Part shown: piece after piece, positions 6,622 through 29,761 of the stretch
How the letters are laid out: each line of letters opens with the position of its first letter
Position numbering within the stretch: the first letter of the stretch is position 1
Assembly (NCBI GenBank): GCA_050010035.1
Contig: JBEKLU010000057.1
Location: forward strand, 1 to 32,000
Source: Roseiarcus sp.
Lineage (GTDB): Bacteria; Pseudomonadota; Alphaproteobacteria; Rhizobiales; Beijerinckiaceae
Reading direction: 5' to 3'
DNA: 32,000 nucleotides
Position numbers and translations under genes: made by a program
The notes under the pieces: generated by a model
Told to the model about the DNA's origin: nothing
The model's database searches: none
The model's input: the letters and a program-made list of their open reading frames with translations, nothing else

Positions 6622-7200
6622 TCACAGGATTTGCGCGTGTTCGTCCGCGATTTCCGCGGCGCCCTTGTACACCTGGGCGAGCGCGATGATGATCGCGCCC
6701 ATGAGCAGATTGGAAAAGTCGCCCGCGATGAAGCTGAGCGGCGCGGCGTGCTGATCGGCCGGCAAATGCGCGGTGACGATCACGCCTTCGAGCATCCGGT
6801 AGAGCGGAAACACCGGCACGGCGGCGAGCGTAAAGACGCCCGCCCAGCGCATCCGCAAAGCGGCGGCGACGGTGAAGACTTCGCTGCGCAGGAACCCGCT
6901 GAACAGCCGCCAAATCGCGGCATAGATTGCCAAGTTGATCGCCCACACCGTCGCCAGGGTCAGGGCGAAGCCGAGCCATTTCTGCGTGACGCCGACGTGG
7001 CCGATATCCGTGTGCAGCGTGAATCGCGCCATGTCGGCGATCTTGTCGTCGCTCGTCCAGAAGATCGCGCTCTTGACGAGCAGCCACACCAGCAAAACTA
7101 GGATCATCGCACGCACGGCCTGGCACAGCCAGCCGATCTTATGCAGCAGGGCGTCGCTTGGGATGCTAGACGCCGAGGGGGCGAGGCCGGTCGAACTCAT
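6622..7200 (-). CDS. DUF2975-like multi-pass membrane protein
   Basis: 192 aa with about 4-5 hydrophobic helices, and GGAG before the ATG at 7200. Being followed by a YozG-like HTH is the gene order typical of DUF2975 pairs. Confidence 0.65.
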   Translation of the reverse strand: MSSTGLAPSASSIPSDALLHKIGWLCQAVRAMILVLLVWLLVKSAIFWTSDDKIADMARFTLHTDIGHVGVTQKWLGFALTLATVWAINLAIYAAIWRLFSGFLRSEVFTVAAALRMRWAGVFTLAAVPVFPLYRMLEGVIVTAHLPADQHAAPLSFIAGDFSNLLMGAIIIALAQVYKGAAEIADEHAQIL

Positions 7201-7263
7201 CGGAGGCTCCTTGCGTCGGAAGGGCCGCTGTCAGCGGATGGATTCATCTATAGCATTCACAAT

Positions 7264-7280
7264 TTAATGTCAAACATTAA
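7264..7280. promoter_or_regulatory. perfect 7-3-7 palindrome TTAATGTcaaACATTAA in an AT-rich divergent promoter region (candidate operator of the small HTH)
   Basis: Read directly from the sequence. It lies about 65-80 nt upstream of the DUF2975 start (7200, minus strand), in the only AT-rich patch of the 7201-7458 intergenic region. Confidence 0.45.
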
Positions 7281-7458
7281 TTTTATCGTGATTCGCGTGC
7301 AACCGATGATCCACGCCGGCCGGAACCTCGGTCGCGAAGCCGGATCGAACCGGCCTGCCGACATGTGAAGCAACCGCTTGCGCTCGCGCGGCCGGATCGG
7401 CTAGCGCTGGCGCGCGCCGATCCGCTCGGATCAGGCGCCGAACGGACGGAGCCCGACA

Positions 7459-8670
7459 TTGAAACCGCTCGCCGGCCTGAAAGTCTTGGAGCTCGCGCGC
7501 ATTCTCGCCGGCCCCTGGGCGGGCCAGACGCTCGCCGACCTCGGCGCCGAGGTGATCAAGGTCGAGCGGCCGGGCGCCGGCGACGACACGCGCGGCTGGG
7601 GCCCGCCGTTCGTGGAGGGCGAAAACGGCGAGCGGCTCGACGCCGCCTATTTCCATTCCTGCAATCGCGGCAAGCGCTCGCTCGCGGTCGATTTCGAGCG
7701 ACCCGAGGGCCGCGAGATCGTGCGGCGACTGGCGGCCCGCGCCGACGTGGTGATCGAGAATTTCAAGACTGGCGGGCTCGCCAAGTACGGGCTCGACTAC
7801 GCCAGTCTGAAGCCGCTCAATCCGCGCCTCGTCTATTGCTCGATCACCGGCTTCGGCCACGACGGCCCCTACGCGGCGCGCGCCGGCTACGACTTCATCA
7901 TCCAGGGCATGGGCGGGGTGATGGACCTGACGGGCGAACCCGGCGGCGAGCCGCAGAAGATCGGCGTCGCTTTCGCCGACATCTTCACCGGCGTCTATGC
8001 GGTGGCGGCGATCCAGGCGGCGCTGATCCGCCGTTCGATCACCGGGTTAGGGGGCGAAATCGACATGGCCCTCTTGGACACGCAGGTCAGCGTGCTCGCC
8101 AACCAGGCGCTGAATTTCCTCGTCTCGGGAAAAGCGCCTCGCCGCCTCGGCAACGCCCATCCCAACATCGTGCCCTACCAGGTGTTCGAGGCGGCCGACG
8201 GGCCGCTGATCGTCGCCGCCGGCAACGATCGCCAGACCCGCGACTTCTGCCGCATCCTCGGCCTCGACGCGCTCGCCGCCGATCCCGCTTACGCGACCAA
8301 CGCCGACCGCGTGCGCAATCGGGCGCCATACGTGGCCGCCCTCGCCGCGGCGGCGCGGGCGATGCCGCGCGCGGCGCTGCTCGAAGCGCTGGAATCAGCG
8401 GGCGTGCCGGCCGGGCCGATCAATTCGGTCGCCCAAGTCTTCGCCGACCCGCAAGTGCAAGCGCGTGGGCTACGGCTCGATCTTCCCGCGACGGGCGCAC
8501 GGGGCGGAAGCGCCCCTTCGGTGCGCTCGCCGCTCGTCATCGACGGCGAACCCGCCGCCGCCGAGACCGCCGCGCCGCGCCTGGGCGAGCACACCGACGG
8601 CGTCTTGAGCGAACTGGGCTTGTCGGCGGAAGAAATCGCGGACCTGCGCGCGGCGGGCGCGGTGGCCTAA
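7459..8670 (+). CDS. CaiB/BaiF family (class III) CoA-transferase
   Basis: 403 aa: (TTG)KPLAGLKVLELARILAGPWAGQTLADLGAEVIKVERPGAGDDTRGWGPPF. GGAG lies 7 nt upstream of the TTG start. Confidence 0.88.
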   Translation: MKPLAGLKVLELARILAGPWAGQTLADLGAEVIKVERPGAGDDTRGWGPPFVEGENGERLDAAYFHSCNRGKRSLAVDFERPEGREIVRRLAARADVVIENFKTGGLAKYGLDYASLKPLNPRLVYCSITGFGHDGPYAARAGYDFIIQGMGGVMDLTGEPGGEPQKIGVAFADIFTGVYAVAAIQAALIRRSITGLGGEIDMALLDTQVSVLANQALNFLVSGKAPRRLGNAHPNIVPYQVFEAADGPLIVAAGNDRQTRDFCRILGLDALAADPAYATNADRVRNRAPYVAALAAAARAMPRAALLEALESAGVPAGPINSVAQVFADPQVQARGLRLDLPATGARGGSAPSVRSPLVIDGEPAAAETAAPRLGEHTDGVLSELGLSAEEIADLRAAGAVA

Positions 8671-8674
8671 CCCC

Positions 8675-9172
8675 TCACGCCCCTCGCACCTTCCCGCTCA
8701 CCCCCTCGAACGCCCCCGGCTGCAACTCGCAGTAGAGCAGGCGCTTGGGATCGACCGGGCCGGGCATGACGATGCGGCCGGGCGGCGCGCGCTTGAAGCC
8801 CATGCGCGCGTAATAGGGCTCGTCGCCCACCAGAATCGCCAGTTTCGCGCCCGCCGCCTTGGCCGCTTCGAGCGAACGCGTCACCAGCGCCTCGCCGATG
8901 CCCTGGCTGCGAAACACCGGCTCGACGATCAACGGCCCGAGCAGCAGGGCCGGGCTCGCGCCGACGAGAATCGGCGTCATCGCGTTGGCGCCGACCAGCA
9001 GCGTGCCGACGCGCGCGACGAAGCTCAGCGACAAGTCCGCCGCCGTCGTCTCGCGAATGCGATAGGCGGTGCGCGCGAAGCGGCCCGGCCCGAACACCCG
9101 CTCGTTGAGCCGCAGAATCGATTCGCCGTCGGCGGGCGTCTCCGGTTCGAGGAGCAGCGACAATTCGGTCAT
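8675..9172 (-). CDS. GNAT family N-acetyltransferase
   Basis: 165 aa with the acetyl-CoA motif VEPVFRSQGIGEALV. It is convergent with the CoA-transferase gene. Confidence 0.8.
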   Translation of the reverse strand: MTELSLLLEPETPADGESILRLNERVFGPGRFARTAYRIRETTAADLSLSFVARVGTLLVGANAMTPILVGASPALLLGPLIVEPVFRSQGIGEALVTRSLEAAKAAGAKLAILVGDEPYYARMGFKRAPPGRIVMPGPVDPKRLLYCELQPGAFEGVSGKVRGA

Positions 9173-9258
9173 GGGAGCTTCTTAAGGGACAGGAGGACAG
9201 GCGAGGCGCGCTGTAGCACGGACGCGGCCAGGCCCGGAAGAGCGCGCGCCCTAAGCGC

Positions 9259-9747
9259 TCACCAGGCCGCCGAGATCGGGGCGGCGCCGAGAATCTCGTC
9301 GAGCCGGGCGCGCGTCCCGCGGGTGACGTCGGGCGGCAGCGCGTCGCGGGCAAAGAAGCGCGCGGCGACGATCTCGCGGTCCGGCGCGCGCTCGCCCGTG
9401 ACGCGAAATTGGCGCGCCACATAGACCGCGACGTGATCGCGGCGGGAAACATGAGCGTTGAGGAACAGCCCGTGCAGCAGCGGCGGCGCTTCGAGCACCA
9501 CGTTGGCCTCCTCGGCGAGCTCGCGCGTCAGCGCGCGCTCAAAAGTCTCGCCGACCTCGACGCCGCCGCCGGGAAGGTGCCAGCCCGCGACATAGGTGTG
9601 CTTGACCAGCAGAACGCGATCGTCGCGGTCGATCACCGCCGCCCGGACCCCCAGCGTCATCGGCCGCGTCAGCAGGAAGCTCAGATGCGCGAGCCGCGAC
9701 GTCAGGCGCTGGCGAATAGAGCGGCGGTTTTGGCCTTGCGTCGGCAA
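9259..9747 (-). CDS. NUDIX hydrolase
   Basis: Nudix box GGGVEVGETFERALTRELAEEANV. The start is either TTG at 9747 or ATG at 9660. Confidence 0.85.
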   Translation of the reverse strand: MPTQGQNRRSIRQRLTSRLAHLSFLLTRPMTLGVRAAVIDRDDRVLLVKHTYVAGWHLPGGGVEVGETFERALTRELAEEANVVLEAPPLLHGLFLNAHVSRRDHVAVYVARQFRVTGERAPDREIVAARFFARDALPPDVTRGTRARLDEILGAAPISAAW

Positions 9748-9849
9748 ATTCGTCTCCCTAAGGGTCTCTTCGTCGTCGGACCCTAGCGCGCCGCGGCGCG
9801 AGCGTCAGGCCAAAGCGGGCGTCGCGCCCCATCCGGAATCGACTTGTCC

Positions 9850-10758
9850 ATGAGTTTCACCATCGCGCATCTCTCCGACGCCCATCTCGGGCCCGCGCCT
9901 TTCCCCGGCCTTGGCGAGATGCGGCTGAAGCGCTTCATGGGCTGGGTCAATTGGAAGCGCGGCCGCGAGCGCCTCAACGACATGGCGATGCTGGCGCGGC
10001 TCGTCGCGGATTTACGCGCGCAGTCGCCCGACCATGTCGCGATGACCGGCGACGTCGCCAATATCGGGCTCTGCGCCGAATTCCGCCGCGCCGCGCAATG
10101 GCTCAGCGCCTTGGGCGAGCCCGCCGACGTCAGTTTCACCCCGGGCAATCACGACGCCTATGTGCGCGACGCGGTGCAATGTCTGGCCAAGACGTTCGCG
10201 CCGTGGACATCGAGCGACGCGGGCGCCGGCAGGAACGATCGGTTCCCCTACCTGCGCGTGCGCGGCGAGGTCGCGCTGATCGGCCTCAACTCGGGCGTGC
10301 CGACCGGGCCGCTGATGGCGACCGGCCGACTGGGCGCGCGCCAGATCGCCGAGCTCGGCGATCTCCTGCAAGAGACCGGCGCGCGCGGCCTGGCGCGCGT
10401 CATCCTGATCCATCATCCCCCGCTGTCGCGCGGCGGCTCGCCGCTGCGCCGGCTGACCGACGCGCGCGCTCTCGAGACCATCGTCGGCCGTTTCGGCGCC
10501 GAGGCGGTCCTGCACGGCCATGCGCACGAGCGCATGGTCCATCATCTGCCCTCGGCCGCCGCGCGCGTCGAAGGCGGGCGCATCCCCATACTCGGCGTCC
10601 CGTCCGCCGTCGCCACGTCGGCGGACCTCAGCCATCGCGCCGCCTATCATCTCGTCCACCTGGAGCGCGCCGGCGAATTCTGGCGCGTCGGACTGCGCGC
10701 GCGCGGCATGTTGCCGGGCAGCGGCGAAATCGGCGAGCGCGAGGCGCCGGCGATTTAG
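9850..10758 (+). CDS. metallophosphoesterase
   Basis: MSFTIAHLSDAHLG, GDVANIG, GNHD, HHPP and GHAHE motifs. I prefer the ATG at 9850 to the track's TTG at 9844. Confidence 0.85.
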   Translation: MSFTIAHLSDAHLGPAPFPGLGEMRLKRFMGWVNWKRGRERLNDMAMLARLVADLRAQSPDHVAMTGDVANIGLCAEFRRAAQWLSALGEPADVSFTPGNHDAYVRDAVQCLAKTFAPWTSSDAGAGRNDRFPYLRVRGEVALIGLNSGVPTGPLMATGRLGARQIAELGDLLQETGARGLARVILIHHPPLSRGGSPLRRLTDARALETIVGRFGAEAVLHGHAHERMVHHLPSAAARVEGGRIPILGVPSAVATSADLSHRAAYHLVHLERAGEFWRVGLRARGMLPGSGEIGEREAPAI

Positions 10759-11532: not shown

Positions 11533-11880
11533 GCGTTACGGCATGCACAGATTTGGCGACGCTTGCGGGCTAAGCGATTCACACAAGTCGAAGGCGCCCC
11601 TTCCCCCCTTGCGGGGGAAGGTGGCCGGCGGAGCCGGCCGGATGAGGGGGGCGCCGCAAGGCGCGTCGCTTCGACGTCAGCGAAAGTTTCTCGGCTCATA
11701 CCGCAAGAATTGCCGCCGACTGCGCCTTATCGTGACAACGCGCCTTGCGGCGCGCCCCCTCATCCGTCATCGCTGACGCGATGACACCTTCCCCCGCGAG
11801 GGGGGAAGGGGCGCGCGCCTTGATGAGGCATATCCGTCTGGCCGGCAACAGGAAATTGACTTGTGTGCATACCGTAGCGC
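11533..11880. repeat. composite REP/MITE-like element: two inverted copies of a triple-hairpin GC-rich unit bounded by about 19-bp inverted termini
   Basis: The outer inverted repeats are GCGTTACGGCATGCACAGA (11533-11551) and TGTGTGCATACCGTAGCGC (11862-11880). An inner perfect 10-bp inverted repeat is CACACAAGTC (11580-11589) and GACTTGTGTG (11858-11867). The hairpins are CCTTCCCCCC-TTGC-GGGGGAAGG, GGCCGGC-GGA-GCCGGCC and GCGCC-GCAA-GGCGC. Confidence 0.8.
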
Positions 11881-12948: not shown

Positions 12949-13863
12949 ATGAGCGCGCCGCGAGCGCTCGTCGTCGGCGACGTTATGATCGACTTGATCG
13001 TGCGTCTCGAAGGCCCGATCGCCGTCGGCTCGGATCGGCGCGCCAAGATCGCCGAGCGCCCCGGCGGATCGGCGGCCAACCAGGCGGTCTGGCTCGCCCA
13101 TTTCGGCGTCGCCGTCGATTTCGTCGGCCGCGTCGGTGCGGCCGACATCGAACGCGAGAGCGCGCGCTTTCGCCGCGCCGGCGTCGACGCCCATCTGGCG
13201 GGCGACGCGACGCGCGAAACCGGCCGCCTGATCGCGCTCGTCGACCCCTCGGGCGAGCGCAGCTTCCTCACCGACCGCGCCGCCAACGAGGCGCTGCAGG
13301 CGAGCGACATCCCCGACGGTCTGATCGAGAGCGCCGCGCTGATCCACCTCTCCGGCTATTCCTTCTTCGCCCCCTCGCCGCGCGCCGCGGCGATCGACGT
13401 CATGCGCCGCGCGAAAGGCAAGCCGATCGGCGTCGACCCCGCTTCGGCCGAATTCCTGCGCGAAGTCGGCGCGACGAATTTTTTCGAGTGGACCCGCGGC
13501 GCCTCGATGCTGTTCCCCAACGGCGAGGAGGCGGAAGTGCTGGCGGGAACCGAGGACCCCGCGCTGCAAGGCGAGCGCCTGAGCGCCTGCTACCCCCTCG
13601 TCGTCGTCAAGCGCGGCGCGGCGGGCGCCGAGGCGTTCCAGGGCGAGCGCCGCTGGCGCGTCGCCGCGCCCCCCGCGAAGTCGCTCGACTCGACCGGCGC
13701 CGGCGACGCCTTCGTCGCCGCGTTCCTGGCGGCGCGGCTGCAGGGCGAGGACATGGAAGCATGCCTGCGCCACGCCGCCGCCGCCGGCGCCGCCGCGACG
13801 CAGCTCGTCGGCGCCCGCCCCCTTCCCCCCTTGCGGGTGTCAGGCGAACGTCTCGTTCGCTGA
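12949..13863 (+). CDS. psuK: PfkB-family carbohydrate kinase, likely pseudouridine kinase
   Basis: The ATG abuts the psuG stop. PfkB motifs GGSAANQAVWLA and DSTGAGDAFVAAFL are present. The last ~17 codons plus the stop codon (13811-13863) read into a REP element (ARPLPPLRVSGERLVR). Confidence 0.8.
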   Translation: MSAPRALVVGDVMIDLIVRLEGPIAVGSDRRAKIAERPGGSAANQAVWLAHFGVAVDFVGRVGAADIERESARFRRAGVDAHLAGDATRETGRLIALVDPSGERSFLTDRAANEALQASDIPDGLIESAALIHLSGYSFFAPSPRAAAIDVMRRAKGKPIGVDPASAEFLREVGATNFFEWTRGASMLFPNGEEAEVLAGTEDPALQGERLSACYPLVVVKRGAAGAEAFQGERRWRVAAPPAKSLDSTGAGDAFVAAFLAARLQGEDMEACLRHAAAAGAAATQLVGARPLPPLRVSGERLVR

Positions 13864-14058
13864 GAGGTGTCACGCGAAGCGTGACGGATGAGGGGGCGCG
13901 CCGCAAGGCGCGTCACTTCCGCGTCCAGGAGACCCGGCGGCCGGTTTACGCGGCAAAAATCGTCGCCGATCGCGGCGATTGCAACGAGCGCCTTGCGGTG
14001 CCCCCTCATCCGGCCGGCTCCGCCGGCCACCCGCGAGGGGGGGAAGGGGCGCGCGTCA
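13811..14058. repeat. REP cluster: two inverted copies of the same GC-rich hairpin unit seen at 11.6-11.8 kb
   Basis: Copy 1 (13811-13915) is GCGCCCGCCCCCTTCCCCCCTTGCGGG ... GGATGAGGGGGCGCGCCGCAAGGCGCGTCAC, with inserted hairpins GCGAAC-gtctc-GTTCGC and GTCACGC-gaa-GCGTGAC. Copy 2, in reverse orientation (13981-14058), contains CCTCATCCGGCCGGCTCCGCCGGCCACCCGCGAGGGGGGGAAGGGGCGCGCG. Confidence 0.8.
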
Positions 14059-14569
14059 CGCAGCGGCGGCGCACTTCAAAGGCGGGCGCCAGCGCAAGGC
14101 GATTTTGCTCGGGCGCGGTCGTCAGGACGTAAGGGACTAAAGATCAAGGATTTAACGTTCTGGCCAGCCGGAAACCGAGACCTGTGATCCGGAGGACAGG
14201 GCTGTACCTGAGGCGGCCCGCGGCGCGGAGGTACCACGGATCGTCCTCCCAGGAGCCGCCGCGAACGACCCGAGTTTCACATGTTACATCTGTCCAAACA
14301 CTGCCGTCTTGCGGCGCGCCGCCGTAGCTGTCGTGATAACAGTCTTCGACCCACTGCCATACGTTGCCGTCCATGTCGTAAACCCCAAAGGCGTTCGGCG
14401 CGAAACTGCCGACGGGAACCGTTTTGCCTCGATTCACACCTGTCGGTCCGGCATTGTAACTTTGCGTTCCGTCATAATTCGCTTGGTTCGGCGAAATCGT
14501 CGCGCCTTGCCAAAACGCCGTCGTCGTTCCCGCCCGCGCCGCATATTCCCATTCGGACTCGCTCAACAG

Positions 14570-14579
14570 GCGGTATGGC
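14570..14579. repeat. target-site duplication (left copy) GCGGTATGGC
   Basis: Identical 10-mers directly flank the IS ends, at 14570-14579 and 15865-15874. Confidence 0.9.
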
Positions 14580-15864
14580 CACGGCACGGATTCCAGGTTA
14601 ACGGTTATTTCATTTGCAGGATTTCGAGAAGGAAATTCGTATTCCAACTCGCTGATTTTCTGCGTGTTTTGACGCTTCCGGCTGTTTTGTTGGCGCGCAC
14701 GAGGCCGAGCGCGAAGCGGCGGACGATGGCCATGTTCTTGGCGCCGTGGCCAGCGCGGTAGCGCGACAGATCGTCCTTGAACTCCATGTCGAGCAACCAG
14801 TGCATGCTCTCGACGCCCCAGTGGCCGCGCGCGCCGGCCGCGAGCCGTTCGATATCGAGCGGCGCGGACGAGATATAGAGCCGTGTGTCGAAGGTGCATC
14901 GGTCCGCGTATTCGGTTCGATTGAGAACGCGAACGAGCGTCTTGATGTTTTCGAAACGCGGTTGGCCCGGATAGGACTTGTCGGCCTTGATCCATTCGAC
15001 CTCTTGGGAGGCGGTGTAGAGGCGGGTTTCGATGCGGCCATGGCCTTTCTCGATGGCGGTCTTCGAGACGAGTTCGCCCGCCGGCGCGGTGTCGAAATAG
15101 GAGCCGACCTCCGCTTCCATCGTCGGCTGATTGCCCTTCAGCGGCAGCAGAAATTCGGCTTTGTGCTCGACGATCCCGGCGGCGATCTCGACCTGACATC
15201 CCATGGCGTCGATGGTGACGAGGGCGCCTTCGAGTTGGCCCGCCTCGGCCAGGTGGTCGAGCAGATCGGGGATGGCCGTGATCTCGTTGGTTTTCTCGGG
15301 CACGCTGAGTTGCGCCAGCGTGAGACGGGCGTTTGTCGCATAGGCGCTGAGCGTGTGCAGCGCCTTGAGCGCCTTGCGCTTGTCGTGCGTGCGGCGCGAG
15401 GTCTTGCCGTCGATGGCGATGAGGTCGTGCCGGCCCGGCCACAGCGCCTTGATCCAGCCGTCGAAACAACGCCCGAATGTGAGAGGGTCCACCCGGTTGA
15501 CCAGGGTGCGCAGCCACCGCTCGCAGGGGATTCCATGATGGAACGGCGCGAACATCTTAAGAAAACCGAGATGATGTTCGCCCCAGGCGACGATATCGTC
15601 GAAGTCGTCGCAAGAGGCGATGGTGGCGCAGGTCAGCAGCAGCAGGACTTCGGCCAAGGGATAGACGATCCGCCAGGGCTCGCGCTCGTCCGAGAGCCTG
15701 GAAAAATGCTTCAAGAGCAGGGCTACGCGCGCCCGAGGAACCTCCTCGTCGGCGAAAAAGTCGGCTGTGTCGTCCATGTGGCGCCCCCAAGCGAATCAGG
15801 GCCCCGAGAGAATCACGCCGCCGCGTCAAGGCAAAATCGTCGTTAACCTGAGTTCCGAGCCGTG
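14580..15864 (-). mobile_element. ISAs1-family insertion sequence (1285 bp)
   Basis: The 24-bp imperfect terminal inverted repeats are CACGGCACGGATTCCAGGTTAACG (14580-14603) and the reverse complement of 15841-15864, CACGGCTCGGAACTCAGGTTAACG (20/24 match). It has a single transposase ORF, a 10-bp TSD, and visibly lower GC than its flanks. Confidence 0.9.
14605..15777 (-). CDS. ISAs1-family transposase (H-repeat-associated-protein-like)
   Basis: 390 aa: MDDTADFF...DEREPWRIVYPLAEVLLLLTCATIASCDDFDDIVAWGEHHLGFLKMF...IAIDGKTSRRTHD...VTIDAMGCQVEIA...HWGVESMHWLLDMEFKDDLSRYR. The layout is typical of the ISAs1 DDE transposase. Confidence 0.9.
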   Translation of the reverse strand: MDDTADFFADEEVPRARVALLLKHFSRLSDEREPWRIVYPLAEVLLLLTCATIASCDDFDDIVAWGEHHLGFLKMFAPFHHGIPCERWLRTLVNRVDPLTFGRCFDGWIKALWPGRHDLIAIDGKTSRRTHDKRKALKALHTLSAYATNARLTLAQLSVPEKTNEITAIPDLLDHLAEAGQLEGALVTIDAMGCQVEIAAGIVEHKAEFLLPLKGNQPTMEAEVGSYFDTAPAGELVSKTAIEKGHGRIETRLYTASQEVEWIKADKSYPGQPRFENIKTLVRVLNRTEYADRCTFDTRLYISSAPLDIERLAAGARGHWGVESMHWLLDMEFKDDLSRYRAGHGAKNMAIVRRFALGLVRANKTAGSVKTRRKSASWNTNFLLEILQMK

Positions 15865-15874
15865 GCGGTATGGC
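15865..15874. repeat. target-site duplication (right copy) GCGGTATGGC
   Basis: See the left copy. In the host gene this 10-mer encodes ..PYR. Confidence 0.9.
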
Positions 15875-17423
15875 TCGCCCGTCTTGCTCGACAGCCATTT
15901 GACGTATAGCTGAGCGTCATTCCAGGAAACATTGATCACCGGCCGCCGGCCGCGGCCCCAACCCTGATCGCTCGGCTTGTAGCCGCCGCAGCCGCCGTCG
16001 GCGACGCAAGCGTCCCACTCGTCGAATGTGACCGTGAAAGCCGCTGCCGCGAAGGGCTTGCCGATCCGCGCGTCGTGCTGCGGGCCCTCGTCGTCGGAAC
16101 GGCCTTTCTCGCTCGCGGGCGATCCCATGGTGAACGACCCGGCGGGAACGACGACCATCACAGGACAATTCGCGCATTCCCGGAACTGATCCTTCGGCTT
16201 CAGCCCGCATTCCTCCGCCGCCGAGAGGACGCTTGGCGGCCGCGACGCCAAAGGCGCCAGGGAAACCCACGGGCAATGTCCCCATTCGGTCGCGCCGATT
16301 GTCTGCCCCGCGATCGGCGAGGGCGACACAGTCGGCGCCCCCAAAGCGACAGGCGAAGGAGCCGAGGTCGACGCTGGAGACGCGGAGCTGGTGGACGACG
16401 GGCTAGGCGACGGCGTGAGCCCATAACGTCCGCGCGTCGCAACCACGCCGACGCTCGCCGCGACGACGACGACCAGGGCGACGACCCCGGCGATCAGACG
16501 CCTTTTTCTCGACAGATCGTCCGGCTCAGGACCAGCGAGCGGCGAACGGGCGTCGCCGCTTCCCGGCGAAACGGCCTCTTGCGGCGCTTGCGCAGGCGTC
16601 GCCGCGGTCGGCGAAGCCGCAGCCTCTTCGGGCGAAGCGGGGGCGACGCTCGGCGTTGGACGGTCGGGCGCCGGCGAAGGCGTCGCCGGCGGCGTCTCGA
16701 CGGCCGGCGCGGCCGGCGGCGTTTCCTCGACCCGCTCGGGCGCGATCACGGTCCGCCCGTCGCCCGAATGCGCGCCCTCCGGCGCGGTGCGCGTCGCCAT
16801 CGGCCGCCGCAGCGCCTTCAAGACGTCGGCCGCCAACTCGCCCGCCCAGCGCCGCACCTCCTGCGATTTCGGGTCGGCGTAGAACAGCGGCCTGAAATCG
16901 ATCCACTGCGAGCGGCGCAGCGCGGCGAGGTCGTCGCCGAACACCGTCTCGTCGGGCCTGACGTCGTCGACGCTGATGTAATGGACGGGAAAGACCAGGT
17001 CGTTGCGGCCGAGCCTCTGCATCCGGCGCCGGAACGAGACGAATTCGTCGCGGCAATTTTCGCTCTTCAGGAAGCGCGGCGTGACGATCGGGATGAAGAA
17101 GGTGGTTTGCCCGATGGTGCGCTCGATGGTCTCGGCCCAATCCGCGCCATAGGGAATGGCGGCGATGTCCTGCCACAGCGTCACTTCGACGCCGCATTGC
17201 AGAACGATCTGCTTGCCGACGATCGCGCGCAATAGGCTCAACTGCCCGTCGCTGTGCGCGTCGTCCTGACGCGCGTAGCTCCAAAAGCCTACGGGATCGA
17301 GCATCGCCAACGCCTTCGCCTGGCGTCCCCCGGCGCGGCGCGAGCCGCCTTCTCCGACCCGACCGACCGCCGCCGACAAAGTGCCCCCATCTCACGCGGC
17401 GGACAAGGCGTTTCCGCATCGGG

Positions 17424-17497
17424 GCGCGAAGTTCTTTCGCGCCGGGCGACTCGCGCCTCTCGAAGAGCGGGCCCCTTCCCCCGCGAGGGGGGAAGTG
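17424..17497. repeat. REP-type hairpins between the two TIR paralogs
   Basis: Contains GCGCGAA-gttct-TTCGCGC and CCCCTTCCCCC-GCGA-GGGGGGAAG, the same motif family as at 11.6, 11.8 and 14.03 kb. Confidence 0.7.
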
Positions 17498-17582
17498 GCG
17501 CCGGGGCCGCCGACAAGGGGAGCGGTCTAGGAAATTTCGACCAGGGCTTCGCCCTCGACCCAACACGTAAAGAGGCAAAGAC

Positions 17583-19538
17583 TCAAGGGGCAAGCGTCCG
17601 CCCGACCCGGAAGCCCAAGTCGTTGATCCGGTGGTCGGAGGTGAACGTGTAGCGGTTGGCCGCGCGGAGGCCCCGCGGATCGTTGCTCCAAGAACCGCCG
17701 CGAACGACACGGCCACTGCAATCGCCGGTTGTCCACGCCGAGCCGTCGCTGGGCGCTCCGCTGTAATCGCCATGAAAGCAATCCTGAACCCATTGCCAGA
17801 CGTTCCCCGCCATGTCGTAGAGCCCGAACGCGTTCGGCTTGAACGAGCCGACCGGCGACGTCCCTTTGTTGTCCCACTGGCTGCCGCAGCCATCGCAATT
17901 GGCGTTGCCTTTGCCGATCTCGTCGCCCCAATAATAGGTCGTCGTCGCGCCGGCGCGCGCCGCATATTCCCATTCGGCCTCGGTAAGCGGTCGATAGGGC
18001 TCGCCGGTCTTGCCGGACAGCCACTTGGCGTAGGCTTGCGCATCGTTCGAGTTCACGCAAATCACCGGGTGCGACCCAGTTTGCTCGAATCCCGGAGCGC
18101 GCCAGGAGCGGTTCGATAGCAATTCCAAAGACCCGCCGTTCCAGGCGTAACACGCCGATCCGGCGTCGTAGCGCGTGGCCGCGACGAACGCCTTGAACTC
18201 GTCGACCGTCACCGTAAACTCGCCGACCGCGAACGGCTTTGCGATCGTCACCTCATGCTGCGGAACCTCGAAGTCGGAGAGGCCCGGCTCGCTCGCGGGC
18301 GAGCCCATGGTGAACGAGCCCGCCGGCAGCACGACCATCGCCGGACAATCCGCGCATTCGCGGAAGACGTCTTTCGGCTTCAGCCCGCATTGCTCCGCCG
18401 CCGACAAGACGCCAGGCGCTCGCGACGAGAGCGGCGCCAGGGGGGCGCGGGAACCGTCGCAAGCCCCCGAGTTAGCGGGCGACGCGACGGCCGTCGGGGT
18501 CTGCGTCGGAGCCGTCGCGAGCCCGGACGGGGCCCGTATTGCGATCACGCCGAGAATCGCCGCGACGACACCGACCAGCGTGACGACTGCGACAATCACG
18601 CCCGACCACCGTTGCGGGCCGCGCGGCGCCGAGCTGATCAACGGCAATTCGCCATTTGCGCGTGCCGGCGCAGCCTCTGGCGCGGACGCTTGCGAGGCAG
18701 CCGGCTCTTCGCGCGCGGGCGGGGCGGCGCTTGGCGCTCGGCGCTCGGCGGCCGGCGAAAGCGGCGCCGGGCGAAGCACCGGCAATTCCACGCTTGGCGT
18801 CGCCGGCGCAGCCTCGCGCGGGATCGCTCGCACCTCCGCCGCCGGGGCTGGCGAAGCCGCCGGTTCCTCGGGTGCGGCCGCGCCCGCGACGGGTGCCGGC
18901 GGTTGGGGGGCCGGCCGCAGCGGCTTCGGCGGCGGCGCAATTTCCGGCGCGACGGGCGGCGTTTCCTCGATCCTTTCTGCCTCAGTCGCTCTCGGCGCCT
19001 CATGCAACGCCGCACGTTCGGGCGCCGCCGCCACCGGCCGCCGCAGCGCCTTCAAAACGTCGCCCGCCAGTTCGCCTGCCCAGCGCCGCACCTCCTGCGA
19101 CTTCGGGTCGGCGTAAAACAGCGGGCGGAAGTCGATCCATTGCGAGCGTTTCAGCGCCGCGAGATCGTCGCCGAACAGCGTCTCCTCGGGGCGGACGTCG
19201 GCGACGTCGACGTAATGCACCGGGAAAATCAGGTCGCCGCGGCCGAGAGCCTGCATCCGCCGCCGAAACGACAGGAATTCCTCGCGGCAATAGCGGCTCT
19301 TGAGGAAGCGCGGGGTGACGATCGGGATGAAGAACGTCGTTTGCCCGATGGTGCGCTCGATCGCCTCCGCCCAATCCGCGCCGTAGGGGATGGCGGCGAT
19401 GTCCTGCCACAGCGTGACCTCGGCGCCGAATTGCAAGCCGATCTGCTTGCCGACGATCGCGCGCAGTTGGCTCAACTGCCCGTCGCTGTGCGCGTCGTCC
19501 TGACGCGCGTAGCTCCAGAACCCGACCGGATCGAGCAT
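17583..19538 (-). CDS. TIR domain - Pro/Ala-rich linker - single TM - periplasmic FGE/SUMF1-fold (non-catalytic) domain protein (paralog 2, intact)
   Basis: 651 aa from the ATG at 19538 (the track ORF extends to 19640). The TIR has [29 protein letters not shown] (SxxCxxE catalytic-Glu motif) and WIDFRPLF. About 170 aa of P/A/E-rich low complexity follows, then the TM segment WSGVIVAVVTLVGVVAAILGVIAI. The FGE fold has [52 protein letters not shown] and VVRGGSWSNDPRGLRAANRY. There is no N-terminal signal peptide. Confidence 0.85.
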   Translation of the reverse strand: MLDPVGFWSYARQDDAHSDGQLSQLRAIVGKQIGLQFGAEVTLWQDIAAIPYGADWAEAIERTIGQTTFFIPIVTPRFLKSRYCREEFLSFRRRMQALGRGDLIFPVHYVDVADVRPEETLFGDDLAALKRSQWIDFRPLFYADPKSQEVRRWAGELAGDVLKALRRPVAAAPERAALHEAPRATEAERIEETPPVAPEIAPPPKPLRPAPQPPAPVAGAAAPEEPAASPAPAAEVRAIPREAAPATPSVELPVLRPAPLSPAAERRAPSAAPPAREEPAASQASAPEAAPARANGELPLISSAPRGPQRWSGVIVAVVTLVGVVAAILGVIAIRAPSGLATAPTQTPTAVASPANSGACDGSRAPLAPLSSRAPGVLSAAEQCGLKPKDVFRECADCPAMVVLPAGSFTMGSPASEPGLSDFEVPQHEVTIAKPFAVGEFTVTVDEFKAFVAATRYDAGSACYAWNGGSLELLSNRSWRAPGFEQTGSHPVICVNSNDAQAYAKWLSGKTGEPYRPLTEAEWEYAARAGATTTYYWGDEIGKGNANCDGCGSQWDNKGTSPVGSFKPNAFGLYDMAGNVWQWVQDCFHGDYSGAPSDGSAWTTGDCSGRVVRGGSWSNDPRGLRAANRYTFTSDHRINDLGFRVGRTLAP

Positions 19539-19788
19539 CGCCAACGCCCCCGACTGGCGGCCCCCGGCGCGGCGCGAGCCGCCCTCCGCAACCCGATCGA
19601 TCGCCGCCGACACGATGCCCCGATCCCACGCGGCGGACAAGGCGATTTCGCGCCGGGGCGGGAAGTTCTTTGGCGCGAGACGCCGGCGCGGCAGGCGTCG
19701 AGCCGCCGCGCCGGGTCGTCATGCCGGCGAGCGCGGGCATCCAGAGTCCGGCCGCCGGCGGCGGCCACTCGTTCTGGATCTCCGCTTT

Positions 19789-19965
19789 CGCGCTACGGTG
19801 TGCACACATCTTAGCGCCGCTTGTGGCCAATCCCCAGGCCCCTCACCCTACCTCTCCCCGCTTGGCGGGGAGAGGGGCGCGGCGGCGCCGTTCTTCCCCT
19901 CTCCCCGCTTGCGGGGAGAGGTAGGGGCTGGGGGAGTTTCCGCGCCGCGGCCGAGTTGTGTGCAT
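19789..19965. repeat. MITE-like element (177 bp) with about 19-bp terminal inverted repeats and internal GC hairpins
   Basis: The terminal inverted repeats are GCGCTACGGTGTGCACACA (19789-19807) and TGTGTGCATTTCGTAGCGC (19947-19965), matching 16/19 when reverse-complemented. The internal hairpins are CCTCTCCCCGCTTGGCGGGGAGAGG and CCCTCTCCCCGCTTGCGGGGAGAGG. The termini are of the same type as the element at 11533-11880. Confidence 0.75.
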
Positions 19966-20181
19966 TTCGTAGCGCTTTCGCCGGGACGACCGATTTCTTT
20001 GCCCGGCCGTCCTCGAAAGCGCGCAACATTTTCTTCTAGAAAATCTGAAACTGCGCTACGCTATTCACTGGAATTCAGAATGGCGCCGATCGCGCCGGGT
20101 CGGGCCGCCGAACGCCGTAGCGAACGGAAAAACGCAAAACCGGGCTTTCCGCCCGCAATCCATTGATATCAAACGAAACCG

Positions 20182-20272
20182 CCAAGGAAAAAGTTTGGAA
20201 ATCCTTGGATTTTCCTTGGATTTTCCTTGGAAAAGTTTGCAAAAGACTTGGAATTATTTGGAAATCCTTGCC
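20182..20272. repeat. AT-rich array of short direct/inverted repeats (TTTGGAAATCCTTG x2, ATTTTCCTTGG x2, GGAAAA(A)GTTTG x2) upstream of pirin
   Basis: Read directly: CCAAGGAAAAAGTTTGGAAATCCTTGGATTTTCCTTGGATTTTCCTTGGAAAAGTTTGCAAAAGACTTGGAATTATTTGGAAATCCTTGCC. It lies 130-220 nt upstream of the pirin ATG and contrasts strongly with the GC-rich surroundings. Confidence 0.7.
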
Positions 20273-25635: not shown

Positions 25636-28143
25636 TCACGCGACCCTGCCCCGCAAGCTGTCCGCGAGCGCCGAAAGCGCATTGGCGAGTTGTCTCGCGA
25701 TCTCCGGCGGCGGCAGCGGCATTTTGAGGTTTTGAACGCCGGTGGCTGGATCCCGCTCAATCCATGGGTGCGCCGGAGCGCCGGGATCGTTGGCGGCCGC
25801 CAGAGCGGCGACGAACTGGGCGCCGACCTGCGCCAAGGCCCGCCACGGATCGGGGACTGCGTCACGCGCCGGCGCTTCGGCCCCGTCAGTCCGCGCGATC
25901 GCCGTCTCGCCAGCGCCAATGTCTATGTCCGCGTTTACATCTTCCACGGATCCGGCGTCATCGCCGGCGACGATATTCCTCACCTCCTCGGCCGGCGTCA
26001 CGGCCTCTCCCTCGCCCATACCCCCGGTGACGTTTTCCACGTCCTTCATGAAGCGGTTGAGACGCGAACCGCCGAGCGAAATCTCGCCGCTGGCGCCGTC
26101 GAGAATTCCTGCCGACAAGGAGCGTTTGAACGCCAGCACCGAAAGCATGCCCTCCTCGATGGTGCCCTTCGCCACGAAATTGACGATCTGCACCGGCCGT
26201 GTCTGGCCCATGCGATGGATCCGCGCGATGCGCTGTTCGAGGATCGCCGGGTTCCACGGCAAGTCCATGTTCACCAGGGTCGAAGCATGCTGCAGATTGA
26301 GGCCCGTGCTGCCAGCGTCGGTGGACAGGAACACACGGCAGGCGGGGTCGTCACGAAACCGCTCGACCAGCGCCGGTCGCTTGTCCGACGGCACGCCGCC
26401 GTGGAAGCTGACGTAGCCGAACTCACGCGCTTCGAGGCGGCGGATGACGATGTCGTGGGTCCGCGTCCATTGCGAAAACACCACCGCCTTGGCCTTCGGC
26501 TCGGCGAACAAATCGTCGAACAGCGCCGCCAATTCGTCGGCCTTGACGCCATGGTCGGTCTCCTGGTCGAGCAGATAGGTGCTGTTGCACGACATGCGCA
26601 TGTTCTGCAAGGCGCAGGTCAGCCGCCGCTGATCCTGATCCGACAGGAACTTGGTCTTGCGCCAGCGCTGGACGATTCGCGCCACCACGTCGGCGTTTTC
26701 CTGGTGATAGAGCATTTGCATCTCGGTCATCGGCACCAGCAGGTTCTGGTCGGTCCGGCTGGGCAGTTGCCGCAGCACCTCGGACTTGCGCCGGCGCAGC
26801 ATGATCGGCGCCAGCGTCTGGCCGATCTTCTCCAACCCGGTGTAGCCGGTGACGCGCCCGGCTTCGTCCTTGACCTGATGCTCGTGCAGCAGCTTCCAGG
26901 TCGGCCCGAGCCGGTGCTGGTCGACGAACTGGACGATGGAAATCAGCTCTTCCAGCTTGTTCTCCAGGGGCGTCCCGGTAAGCACGATCGCATAGGGGCT
27001 GTCGATGCGTTTCAAGGCGCGCGCCGCGATGGTGTTCCAGTTCTTCACCCGCTGCGCTTCGTCGACGATCACCAGTTCGGGCGCCCAGGCGGCGATCAGG
27101 TCGAGATCGGGCTTGAGTTTCTCGTAGTTCGTGATCTTGCAGAAATCGTCCAGGGCGTAGTCCTTCTGCCGCTGCGCCCGACCGCCGGCGATGACGCGCG
27201 CCGCGTTTTCGCCCTGTCGCCCCGAGAAACGCACGATCTCGCTCTGCCACTGGTACTTGAGCGAGGTCGGGCAGATCACCAGCACTTTCGCGACGCCGAA
27301 ATGCCGCGCCAGTATTTCCGTCGCGGCGATCGCCTGTATGGTCTTGCCCAGTCCCATATCGTCGCCGATCAGGGCCCGGCCGACCCGCACCGCGAACAGC
27401 GCGCCCTCGGCCTGATAGGGATAGAGCGGCGCCTTCAGAAGCGCCAGCAGCTTGGGATCGGCCGCGCCGCGCGGGAACAACTGCTCGAGCTTCGAAGCGC
27501 GCCGGTCCGCGTCCCGCCTTCCCGCGACGAAATCGAGCGCGTCGTCGTAGGCGCGCAATTCATGACCGCACTTCGCCGCCGCGGCCATGAAAGGCTCCAG
27601 CTCGCCAAGGCGCTCGTCCGGCAGCATCCCGTCGCGCTCGACGTCGAACAGAGCGGCGGCGGCCTCGCGCAGCTCCGGCGGGCAATCTGTTCCGGCGCGA
27701 AAATGCACGCGGCGTCGGCCTTCGTTGCGCAAGTACAGCTCGGAAAACGCCGGCAGGTAGCCGCGCTTGAACGCCGCCCTGGCGCCGCGCTTCTTCTCCA
27801 GCCGGGCAAGCGTGAATTCGATGTGCTTGCAGGTGCCCAATTCGCTGGTGGCGTAATCCGGGCAGGAACAGAAATTGCCGCCCGGCCCCAAGCCTCGAAT
27901 CGCCACGCGATAGCTGGATTTCGAAACAGGATTGCTGACCCGAAACTCGGAGAAAAACGGTTCGCTGGTCAGGTTTTCGAGCCCGAAGGCCTGCTCGCGG
28001 CCGAACTGGCGGCGCAAGCCGCGTTGCCAGTCCACCGGCGACAGATCGGCGGGCGCGTGGGTGCGCGAGAGCTTGGTTTCCTTGCTCGGCTTGGTGGCGG
28101 AATTCGGGTTTCGGCGCTCGGCTTTCATCGCAGCACGTTCCAT
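25636..28143 (-). CDS. SNF2-family helicase/ATPase with N-terminal SWIM zinc finger
   Basis: 835 aa. The SWIM finger is CSCPDYATSELGTCKHIEF. The helicase motifs are DDMGLGKTIQAIA (I), DEAQRVKN (II), LTGTPLENKLEEL (III), STDAGSTGLNLQHAS (V) and WNPAILEQRIARIHRMGQ (VI). The start is the ATG at 28143 or at 28128. Confidence 0.9.
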   Translation of the reverse strand: MERAAMKAERRNPNSATKPSKETKLSRTHAPADLSPVDWQRGLRRQFGREQAFGLENLTSEPFFSEFRVSNPVSKSSYRVAIRGLGPGGNFCSCPDYATSELGTCKHIEFTLARLEKKRGARAAFKRGYLPAFSELYLRNEGRRRVHFRAGTDCPPELREAAAALFDVERDGMLPDERLGELEPFMAAAAKCGHELRAYDDALDFVAGRRDADRRASKLEQLFPRGAADPKLLALLKAPLYPYQAEGALFAVRVGRALIGDDMGLGKTIQAIAATEILARHFGVAKVLVICPTSLKYQWQSEIVRFSGRQGENAARVIAGGRAQRQKDYALDDFCKITNYEKLKPDLDLIAAWAPELVIVDEAQRVKNWNTIAARALKRIDSPYAIVLTGTPLENKLEELISIVQFVDQHRLGPTWKLLHEHQVKDEAGRVTGYTGLEKIGQTLAPIMLRRRKSEVLRQLPSRTDQNLLVPMTEMQMLYHQENADVVARIVQRWRKTKFLSDQDQRRLTCALQNMRMSCNSTYLLDQETDHGVKADELAALFDDLFAEPKAKAVVFSQWTRTHDIVIRRLEAREFGYVSFHGGVPSDKRPALVERFRDDPACRVFLSTDAGSTGLNLQHASTLVNMDLPWNPAILEQRIARIHRMGQTRPVQIVNFVAKGTIEEGMLSVLAFKRSLSAGILDGASGEISLGGSRLNRFMKDVENVTGGMGEGEAVTPAEEVRNIVAGDDAGSVEDVNADIDIGAGETAIARTDGAEAPARDAVPDPWRALAQVGAQFVAALAAANDPGAPAHPWIERDPATGVQNLKMPLPPPEIARQLANALSALADSLRGRVA

Positions 28144-28626: not shown

Positions 28627-29002
28627 CAGCTATCGACGTCGACCGGCGGATGTCATGCGAATTCGTCGCGCGACCACGTCAAAATCAGGCCCAGCAAGCA
28701 CCGTCGCACCTGCGGCCGTATTGTTTCCTGACTTCCGACCGGTCGGCGATTTCGCGGGGGGCCGATCTGAGTAGATTCCGACTCTACGGCTGGGACCCGC
28801 CCGCAACTAATGATACGGATGTCGTCGCGCGCGCTAGCGGATTCGAGCTGGAACGGGGCCAAAATGCCGGCATGGGTGATGGCGCCGCGTAATATCGGGT
28901 TACGGGTTTTCGTGCAATTCGACCATGGAGCGCACACCGAATTCGGCCAACGTCTTCTGCAGCCGCGTCGACGGCGTTTACGGGGCAATCGAGAGAGCGC
29001 AC

Positions 29003-29761
29003 ATGTCGAAAGTGAGCATTGATGCGCTCCAGCCCGACCGGACGGCGCTCTTCCTGGACGTGGACGGCACTCTTCTCGATCTTGCCGCGTCCCCGACGGC
29101 AGTGGTTGTTCCTCGCGGGCTCGTCGAATGCATCGCCGACATCGAACGGGCGCTCGGCGGCGCGCTCGCTCTCGTCAGCGGACGAACGTTAGCGGATCTC
29201 GATCGGCTGTTTTCGCCGCTGCGCCTGCGAGCGAGCGGCGTTCATGGCGCCGAAATTCGCTACGATCCGCTGACGCCCGTCATCGTCGACGCGGCCGCCG
29301 CCGCCTTGCCCGCCCGGCTCTGGCGGTCCTTGAACGAGTCGCTCGCGGATTTTCCCGGCGCCTTCGCGGAAAACAAGCGCTTCAGTTTCGCGGTGCACTA
29401 CAGAGCCGCGCCGAACTGCGGAGCGGACTTGGGGGAGGTTCTGCGACAGCTCGTCGCCGCCGAGGCGATTCCCGACGTGGAAATCATCGACGCGCGCCTT
29501 GCGTTCGAAATCAAAGGCCGAGGGTTCGACAAGGGTTCGGCGATCAATCGATTTCTCGCGCGCTCGCCGTTCGTCGGCCGGATCCCGATCTTCGTCGGCG
29601 ACGATGGGACCGACGAGGCGGGTTTCGCGGCGGTCGTCCAGCGCCACGGCGCGGCCTATTCAGTCGGCCAGGTTAGGCCCGGCGTCAGCGCAGTATTTTC
29701 TAAGCCGTCGTTGGTCCGCGATTGGCTCGCCCGTTCAGCCGCACAAATGGCGCGCCCATGA
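29003..29761 (+). CDS. otsB: trehalose-6-phosphate phosphatase
   Basis: The ATG at 29003 lies within track ORF 28925..29761. HAD motifs are present: FLDVDGTLLD, VSGRT, and FEIKGRGFDKGSAI...VGDDGTDE. Confidence 0.88.
   Translation: MSKVSIDALQPDRTALFLDVDGTLLDLAASPTAVVVPRGLVECIADIERALGGALALVSGRTLADLDRLFSPLRLRASGVHGAEIRYDPLTPVIVDAAAAALPARLWRSLNESLADFPGAFAENKRFSFAVHYRAAPNCGADLGEVLRQLVAAEAIPDVEIIDARLAFEIKGRGFDKGSAINRFLARSPFVGRIPIFVGDDGTDEAGFAAVVQRHGAAYSVGQVRPGVSAVFSKPSLVRDWLARSAAQMARP

Follow-up and report, generated by a model that had tools for sequence, protein, structure and literature searches.

The question raised by this locus is whether a bacterial TIR domain can be driven by a sensor that lies outside the inner membrane. 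The locus consists of two adjacent genes in a stretch of 32,000 nucleotides of Roseiarcus sp. (contig JBEKLU010000057.1, positions 1 to 32,000; hereafter the window, corresponding to 32 kb of the genome), which an initial annotation had described as tandem paralogs of one architecture, an N-terminal TIR domain followed by a linker, a single transmembrane (TM) helix and a C-terminal domain of the formylglycine-generating enzyme (FGE)-sulfatase fold. We report that both genes are real and lie on the minus strand at the positions given below (open reading frame (ORF) list and Pfam), and that paralog A is intact. Paralog B has the same architecture but its FGE domain is interrupted by an element of the ISAs1 family, an insertion sequence (IS) that the initial annotation did not mention. 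In the reading that we favour, and that we regard as evenly balanced between right and wrong, the module is a self-contained outside-in sensor, in which clustering would activate NAD cleavage by the TIR domain; A is taken to be functional and B to be inactivated by the IS.

Paralog A encodes a product of 651 amino acids (aa) plus a stop codon and is organised as follows, where VR denotes the variable region targeted by a diversity-generating retroelement (DGR).

17583-19538, minus strand: paralog A, intact, TIR-linker-TM helix-FGE (ORF, homolog N-termini, Pfam TIR_2 and FGE-sulfatase)
19029-19538, minus strand: TIR domain of A, aa 1-170, with Glu87 in SRYCREEF (Pfam, alignments, AlphaFold, PDB matches)
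18609-19028, minus strand: Pro/Ala/Glu-rich low-complexity linker of A, predicted cytoplasmic, aa 171-310 (sequence)
18537-18608, minus strand: single TM helix of A, aa 311-334 (hydropathy; K/R enrichment before the helix in homologs)
17586-18383, minus strand: PvdO-like FGE/C-type-lectin-fold ectodomain of A, aa 386-651, with the ECADCP Cys pair at its start
17586-17702, minus strand: VR-like hypervariable patch formed by the final 39 codons of A, corresponding to the variable region of DGR targets among relatives

The translation start of A was set at the ATG of MLDPVGFW (window position 19538) because dozens of homologs begin there; the 685-aa ORF that starts at a TTG and reaches up to 19640, where the initial annotation had placed the gene start, is an over-extension. 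Pfam TIR_2 (PF13676) scored 44.3 bits on A and 43.7 bits on B (cut-off 28), and Pfam FGE-sulfatase 226.5 bits on A (cut-off 23.3), with a disordered linker and one TM helix separating the TIR domain from the PvdO-like FGE domain. The linker had been estimated to be 150-170 aa; it is shorter, approximately 140 aa in A and 100 aa in B, and the two linkers cannot be aligned to each other. Among orthologs its length varies widely, the TM helix beginning anywhere between residues ~197 and ~339.

What the TIR domain might do was addressed by structure and by conservation. The AlphaFold model (40 sequences) had a predicted local distance difference test (pLDDT) value of 91.1 and a predicted template modelling score of 0.87, and gave 43 PDB matches at E≤1e-3; its best neighbours were all TIRs, headed by SPARTA TIR-APAZ, RPS4, L6, RPV1, SARM1 and Cat1. 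In alignments to RPV1 and L6, the second Glu of SRYCREEF (CREEF) falls on the Glu of their SxWCxxE motif, in agreement with the alignment first proposed for SRYCREEF and for its counterpart SENCRDEF in B. In TIR NADases this position is known to be the catalytic one. Glu87 is invariant in 40/40 aligned relatives, and a reference-genome scan with the TIR alignment (245 loci found, 80 kept for architecture counts) recovered the S..C..E motif in 80/80 genome loci of the TIR clade. The TIR domain of A is predicted to cleave NAD.

Cleavage could also serve to produce a signal: in a Thoeris-like arrangement the TIR domain would not kill through NAD+ depletion but make a nucleotide signal of the cyclic ADP-ribose isomer type, read by an effector encoded elsewhere, with the ectodomain still acting as the sensor. 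It is established that ThsB-type TIRs produce signals rather than deplete NAD+, a weak resemblance to ThsB was reported by PADLOC (E 0.066, not significant), and only 32 kb of the genome is visible. However, the best structural matches are NAD-consuming effectors (SPARTA, SARM1 and plant TIRs), and no ThsA, SLOG, SIR2 or Macro gene is present in the window or recurs beside the 80 related loci, which bears out the earlier remark that no such partner lies nearby. We consider a Thoeris-like role unlikely.

On which side of the membrane each domain resides was judged from four independent lines of evidence, all predictive. First, A has no N-terminal signal, its N-terminus being devoid of a hydrophobic segment, and carries one strong helix, the sole strongly hydrophobic segment VIVAVVTLVGVVAAILGVI (Kyte-Doolittle 3.08 over 19 residues). 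Second, in most of 54 homologs with an internal TM helix the 15 residues preceding the helix contain 1-7 Lys/Arg as compared to 0-3 in those following it. Third, the caspase-FGE relatives, in which the FGE domain is ~66% identical to that of A, begin with a classical signal peptide, and the nearest non-TIR relatives of B (64-66%) are TPR-FGE proteins with an N-terminal hydrophobic anchor. Fourth, the FGE domain opens with a pair of Cys (ECxDCP and variants) in 53/54 internal-TM forms and 32/32 signal-peptide forms, as opposed to 0/12 TIR-FGE proteins without a TM helix; in an independent set of reference genomes the numbers are 10/12 (TM) and 0/12 (TM-less), and the TM-less forms of that set have fewer Cys overall. 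This distribution fits periplasmic disulfide bonding, and in A 10 of the 11 Cys are C-terminal to the helix, as had been noted. The topology proposed at the outset (no signal peptide, one helix, TIR cytoplasmic and FGE periplasmic) is in our view well supported by prediction, and A and B are predicted to be type II single-pass proteins with the N-terminal TIR domain inside.

The TM-less forms deserve separate mention. At loci L009 (P0016) and L018 (P0020) TM-less TIR-FGE genes lacking the Cys pair at the FGE start adjoin psuK/psuG, and L009, which is a more distant relative, also retains the wider Metallophos/NUDIX synteny with its TIR-FGE gene at the same place. From these two loci it appears that the sensor has moved to another compartment in the course of a single gene lineage.

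Concerning the ectodomain, the FGE-sulfatase fold is supported by the model (pLDDT 88.7), for which Foldseek matched FGE structures at E ~1e-19 to 1e-17. In the alignment to Streptomyces coelicolor FGE, 'ggsylChdsyCnryr' stands opposite 'ggsws.ndp..rglr' in A. Because both copper-binding catalytic Cys are missing, the ectodomain of A is, as judged from its sequence, not a formylglycine-generating enzyme. The closest solved structure is PvdO (PDB 5HHA), with a sequence E of 1.6e-63 and, in the structure-based alignment, 44% identity and a TM-score of 0.91 (normalised to PvdO). PvdO is periplasmic, and the purified protein was inactive and cofactor-free (PMC6206403). The NCBI name for the proteins studied here, 'SUMF1/EgtB/PvdO family nonheme iron enzyme', is misleading for them.

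The closeness to PvdO raises the alternative that the FGE fold works in the periplasm as a PvdO-like enzyme or chaperone that matures or oxidises a metabolite or protein, the TIR domain being a regulatory or scaffolding appendage and the module metabolic instead of part of a conflict system. Besides the identity and the TM-score, the 250.8 bits to NCBIfam pyoverdine_PvdO (NF051459) and the housekeeping, syntenic neighbourhood speak for it. That score is, however, far below the equivalog cut-off of 500, no pvd genes are present in the 32-kb window and purified PvdO is itself inactive; moreover, the Glu of the TIR domain shows no variation in relatives, at other loci non-enzymatic repeat ectodomains are joined to the same TIR-TM head, and the most variable sites coincide with positions mutated by DGRs in relatives (see below). 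We find an enzymatic or chaperone role improbable. PvdO shares with the ectodomain of A the periplasmic location (predicted for A), a CxxC at the domain start and the lack of the FGE catalytic Cys, but it is a soluble stand-alone protein encoded in pvd clusters, whereas the domain of A is TIR-fused, predicted to be membrane-tethered and without pyoverdine context.

If the ectodomain is a sensor, where would it bind? Relatives with DGRs suggest an answer. At L083 a TIR-TM-FGE gene is followed by Avd, a reverse transcriptase (RT) and a 125-nt template repeat (TR), with almost all VR/TR mismatches at TR adenines; L033, likewise TIR-TM-FGE, has a 123-nt VR/TR pair with mismatches mostly at TR adenines and only a short RT-like ORF, and L052 and L016 also carry VR/TR pairs, together with RT and Avd. 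L016, the orthologous locus of a related metagenome-assembled genome, shows synteny with the window (pirin, TIR-FGE, Avd, RT/TR, psuK, psuG). When A, B and their orthologs were aligned to the TRs of these relatives, the sites that vary among orthologs were the TR AAC codons, and 13 of the 17 variable-site codons in A are NNC as compared to 39% gene-wide (p 0.002; the sites were chosen post hoc). These variable sites are also the highest-entropy columns among 105 FGE domains. Relative to the ortholog L001, the ratio of non-synonymous to synonymous substitution rates (dN/dS) is 1.97 for the last 39 codons of A and 0.42 for the scaffold, and the nucleotide divergence of these codons is three times that of the scaffold (Fisher p 0.03). 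Finally, two alleles of the ortholog in a sister population (L006/L007/L008 vs L095/L096/L097) are separated by 5 substitutions, all of them within 8 nt, while the rest of the 1713 nt compared is the same. We conclude from these patterns that the ancestor of A was probably a receptor diversified by a DGR and that A retains its variable region as a fossil, and the location of the most variable sites where DGRs mutate relatives points to a putative binding surface, not an active site.

Some details of these loci are given here. The sister alleles read TAC ATC GGA and CTC AAC ATA at nt 1669-1676, with all changes at codon positions 1 or 2; they fall inside the VR-equivalent patch, and a TR is absent from those contigs. 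In L016 the DGR cassette follows the TIR-FGE gene (7001-10223, TR ~10042-10159); the target gene is of the TM-less type, and both target and RT appear frame-shifted, for which we suspect an assembly error.

The second gene of the pair and the region upstream of both genes comprise the following features.

15864-17304, minus strand: 5' part of paralog B, with TIR (16795-17304), linker, TM helix (~16435-16497) and the first ~110 FGE residues
14580-15863, minus strand: ISAs1-family IS within B, transposase ORF 14605-15777 (profile match, inverted repeats, target duplication)
14144-14568, minus strand: 3' part of paralog B, with the remaining FGE domain (Pfam FGE-sulfatase profile positions 111-255) and the stop codon
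19539-19676, minus strand: conserved upstream leader/promoter region of A, with a copy upstream of B at 17305-17442 (ortholog alignment)

The ORF of B stops at 15826 and its FGE domain is split at profile position ~111 by the 1.28-kb element, the transposase of which matched NCBIfam transpos_ISAs1 with 319 bits. The element is bounded by terminal inverted repeats of 33 nt and flanked by a perfect 11-bp target duplication, GGCGGTATGGC, at 14569-14579 and 15864-15874, and its in-silico deletion together with one copy of the duplication restores a 621-aa in-frame protein. Paralog B is consequently a pseudogene, inactivated by IS insertion. The truncated B product was found on 14 contigs from several metagenomes, with the IS downstream wherever the contig reaches that far, and the B knockout is therefore fixed in this Roseiarcus-like population.

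The two paralogs are 88% identical in their TIR halves and 63% in their FGE halves. Positive selection as the cause of the greater ectodomain divergence was rejected, since dN/dS between A and B is similar for the two halves (0.19 for TIR against 0.25 for FGE) while dS differs (0.40 and 1.28, respectively). For the same reason the history of the pair is mosaic, by gene conversion of the 5' half or by an ectodomain swap. The duplicated block has 81% nucleotide identity over 849 nt and corresponds to the TIR domain plus a leader of ~140 nt; the FGE domain of A is equally near to caspase-FGE proteins (66%) and to B, and that of B is nearest to P0014 (77%), followed by TPR-FGE proteins.

The leader of ~140 nt is kept upstream of A, B and the ortholog L001, and all six aligned upstream regions carry an unchanged CTTGT box, a candidate -35 element. 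A sigma-70 promoter scan of 13800-20200 gave no match, and a structured RNA in the common leader was rejected because the fold is no more stable than that of shuffled sequence (z +1.5).

Tandem, diverged FGE genes are also known from interbacterial conflict. Tsi3, an immunity protein from a type VI secretion system (T6SS), is an FGE-domain protein without catalytic residues that confers protection through direct contact with the effector Tse3 and is encoded in tandem by sets of paralogs that have diverged (bioRxiv 10.1101/2021.05.21.445229). As a sub-case of the outside-in sensor, the ectodomain could in a similar way bind an incoming antibacterial effector in the periplasm, upon which the TIR domain would raise an alarm or kill the intoxicated cell. 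The likeness lies in the missing catalytic residues and in the two tandem paralogs with FGE domains 63% identical, binding being proposed for A. Against it, the window has no T6SS, VgrG or effector genes, and Tsi3 has no TIR domain, resides in T6SS effector-immunity loci and belongs to a clade distinct from the PvdO-like one; that toxins are the ligand seems to us rather unlikely.

Whether the outside-in sensor would need a partner was examined from its surroundings. The genes of the window are all metabolic or housekeeping: acyl-CoA dehydrogenases, a CoA-transferase, a GNAT acetyltransferase, NUDIX, psuG/psuK, pirin, an MFS transporter, panE, an SNF2 helicase and a trehalose-phosphatase beside a GH15 hydrolase. 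The order pirin, TIR-TM-FGE, psuK/psuG is kept in related Roseiarcus-type metagenome-assembled genomes, with a single copy of the TIR-TM-FGE gene. Neither A nor B has an NTPase domain and none is encoded nearby in the window. No partner gene is conserved across the 80 TIR-clade loci; the commonest neighbour, a TIR-nSTAND1-TPR protein, is present at only 13/80 and was rejected. Since no neighbour is conserved across loci, the TIR-TM-FGE module is self-contained. Some distant TIR-TM-FGE genes lie among SLATT, patatin and TIR genes. A 137-aa 'gene' predicted between pirin and the TIR gene of L001 was dismissed, as it looks like translated intergenic DNA.

The 245 loci found in the scan show that the TIR head is not restricted to the present genus or to one type of sensor. 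They derive from Alphaproteobacteria (Roseiarcus, Bradyrhizobium, Bosea, Methylobacterium, Acetobacteraceae, Sphingomonadales and Xanthobacteraceae) and Burkholderiaceae and include the cultured Paraburkholderia lacunae S27, P. oxyphila NBRC 105797, Caballeronia glebae LMG 29325, Burkholderia sp. 8Y and Methylobacterium guangdongense SI9. At 54/80 loci the TIR domain is followed by at least one TM segment. The modules after the TIR domain are FGE (24/80), Sel1, WD40, TPR, an SNase-like piece and unknown domains; other versions carry a Ser/Thr kinase followed by a TM helix (once with RodZ_C), an MFS transporter or, with no TM helix, a Cpn60-like domain. The post-TIR module is interchangeable across Alphaproteobacteria and Burkholderiaceae. 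In addition, nSTAND1 NTPase proteins of 761-963 aa, most with an N-terminal TIR domain, have a TM helix directly before the FGE domain. Such TIR-nSTAND1-TM-FGE receptors would have a periplasmic sensor, while the literature calls the STAND-FGS class intracellular.

Among these proteins P0069, P0071, P0084, P0106 and others (~921-963 aa) are TIR-nSTAND1 forms with the TM helix right before FGE. Loci L021-L025 (Paraburkholderia, Caballeronia and Burkholderia sp. 8Y) encode the TIR head and TM helix joined to an ectodomain of ~170 aa that is of unknown type; in L021, L022, L023 and L025 a gene for a 17-kDa outer-membrane-antigen-like protein and one for a trypsin-like peptidase follow it, and L024 ends at a contig edge. 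Two further searches were set aside. That with the TIR domain only returned mostly short proteins, many with Arg-rich tails that look out of frame, which we read as truncated or frame-shifted gene calls and which are uninformative on architecture; that of representative sequences with full-length A was swamped by the FGE family (173,192 clusters at E≤1e-3) and was of no help in counting TIR-TM-FGE proteins.

How, then, might the outside-in sensor work? TIR enzymes need proximity to form a composite active site, and TIR catalysis requires self-association, as for SARM1, plant TIRs, SPARTA and TIR-SAVED. We propose that the pair was built as two type II inner-membrane proteins, each with a cytoplasmic TIR domain, a floppy linker, a TM helix and a periplasmic, disulfide-bonded FGE/lectin-fold domain. 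The ectodomain, having lost the FGE catalytic Cys, would act as a ligand-binding sensor, and a multivalent or surface-bound periplasmic ligand (parts of a phage, an entering toxin and foreign envelope material are candidates) would bind the variable C-terminal patch. Binding would cluster the receptors and bring the tethered TIR domains together, a step that we include because TIR catalysis depends on self-association; the linker being long, disordered and variable in length, proximity is the only plausible coupling. The clustered TIR domains would then cleave NAD+, leading to depletion or to a signalling nucleotide. The module would belong to a wider family of TIR head, TM helix and interchangeable sensor, the lectin-fold members of which may be DGR-diversified receptors or descendants of such.

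Several points weigh against the outside-in sensor. Both NADase activity and ligand-induced clustering are carried over by analogy from other TIR systems, and our search of the literature found no experimental study of any family member. The TM helix was called from hydropathy only, and the long, variable linker offers no allosteric path, leaving proximity as the sole way to couple the two ends. TM-less TIR-FGE orthologs occupy the same locus, so the sensed compartment is not fixed in the gene lineage. The locus itself is a syntenic housekeeping locus and not a defence island, contrary to what the initial annotation had led us to look for, and PADLOC, which it had also suggested, gave insignificant hits only and has no model for the protein. 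Paralog B is an IS-inactivated pseudogene, and the IS is present in every assembly that carries the gene. As to diversification, RT, Avd and TR are all missing from the window, the patch of A is invariant across ~10 assemblies, and a metagenome scan with the VR scaffold of A, 'TCGTTCGCGGCGGTTCTTGG..GGCTTCCGGGTCGG', gave two copies identical to A only and neither a TR nor a variant, where metagenome assemblies are consensus sequences in which microdiversity may be hidden. Since neither the window nor the scan yielded a TR, the scan gave no variant and the patch does not vary among cluster members, the proposal that a DGR acts on A was rejected; an active DGR elsewhere in the genome could conceivably act in trans.

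Taken to their end, the disruption of B in every assembly carrying it, the absence from the window of the DGR seen at the orthologous L016 locus and the lack of population variation in the VR-like patch would make both genes decaying leftovers of a former DGR-linked system that has lost its function in this organism. Paralog A, however, is intact in every assembly examined, dN/dS relative to three orthologs is 0.17-0.30 for the TIR domain and 0.19-0.42 for the FGE scaffold, and Glu87 and the ectodomain Cys pair are retained. We judge such a relic very improbable, and in the outside-in sensor reading, which we keep, A is functional.

With respect to known systems, the term 'undescribed' used at the outset was too strong. 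Sensors of the FGS/C-type-lectin kind fused to TIR, caspase and STAND NTPases, together with DGR diversification, have already been predicted (PMC7159879, PMC8195603), as have the periplasmic location of some DGR-diversified CLec sensor domains and TIR N-termini on some DGR targets (PMC10907252). The finding is a variant of these predicted conflict systems and not a new category. The FGS systems of Kaur, Burroughs, Iyer and Aravind have a like layout, in that the FGS domain, for which binding of invader molecules has been proposed, is C-terminal and the N-terminal effector can be TIR or caspase; they also show frequent DGR linkage and several paralogs per genome. They are, however, described as intracellular, are mostly cyanobacterial and have at their core a STAND NTPase, a GTPase or MoxR-vWA; A and B lack an NTPase, a TM helix separates the TIR and FGS domains, the FGS domain is predicted to be periplasmic and the hosts are unicellular-type Alphaproteobacteria. 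In the literature searched we found no description of a direct, NTPase-free TIR-TM-FGE receptor or of a family of TIR, TM helix and variable ectodomain, and nothing explicit on a membrane-spanning bacterial TIR receptor. The DGR lectin targets (Mtd, TvpA and the Thiohalocapsa 'antigen sensors') have the same fold and a variable region at the extreme C-terminus (RGGSW...GFR), but whereas L083, L033, L052 and L016 have true VR/TR pairs, A has only a fossil signature.

The NAD-cleaving TIRs (SPARTA, SARM1, plant TNL TIRs, Cat1 and Thoeris ThsB) share the TIR fold, the conserved alpha-C Glu and activation by oligomerisation; they are cytosolic and triggered by nucleic acids, nucleotides or NLR oligomerisation, in contrast to the sole plausible trigger here, clustering of a membrane receptor. 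Thoeris pairs ThsB with ThsA (SIR2/Macro-SLOG), for which the window has no counterpart. The comparison with Toll-like and IL-1 receptors, suggested by the domain layout, extends to a sensor outside, one TM helix, a TIR domain inside and the expectation of ligand clustering. However, A is a predicted type II protein of reversed polarity, with an N-terminal TIR domain and no signal peptide; its ectodomain has a lectin fold and not leucine-rich repeats or immunoglobulin domains, and its TIR domain keeps the catalytic-type Glu and is expected to be an enzyme rather than an adaptor scaffold. Our data give no indication of common descent of the whole architecture with these receptors.

Outside the gene pair, Rfam gave no match over the whole window. 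An intergenic repeat with nested palindromes, resembling miniature inverted-repeat transposable or repetitive extragenic palindromic elements, is present in two copies, 11594-11817 and 13865-14055. The former folds at -177.5 kcal/mol (z -15.5); the latter (z -3.3) lies between psuK and paralog B, which converge on it, and includes a hairpin resembling a terminator at 13963-13978. At 25636-28143 (minus strand) an 835-aa SNF2/ResIII helicase is encoded, which in the identical contig L011 adjoins a small HTH_37 gene, and at 28925-31566 (plus strand) a trehalose-phosphatase gene is followed by one for a GH15/trehalase-like hydrolase, at the right end of the window, where GC is lower (0.60-0.64).

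To our knowledge, the bacterial TIR systems characterised to date all detect their triggers in the cytoplasm. Should the architecture work as predicted, a TIR effector would be driven from outside the inner membrane, by phage adsorption or injection, toxin entry or envelope damage, and the module would be a one-protein model of how receptor clustering switches on TIR catalysis. Its DGR-linked relatives would be receptors with a binding surface reprogrammed by targeted mutation, which gives them engineering value, and the existence of cultured relatives makes these ideas testable in culture. More broadly, and as a tentative proposal that we think somewhat more apt to fail than to hold, Alphaproteobacteria and Burkholderiaceae may possess a repertoire of true transmembrane innate-immune receptors, NAD+-cleaving and partner-free, with cytoplasmic enzymatic TIR domains linked through one helix to interchangeable periplasmic sensors, some of them hypermutated by DGRs. 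If so, the cell would survey its periplasm with an antibody-like variable lectin domain, in a bacterial counterpart of Toll-like receptor signalling that does without an NTPase or a partner.

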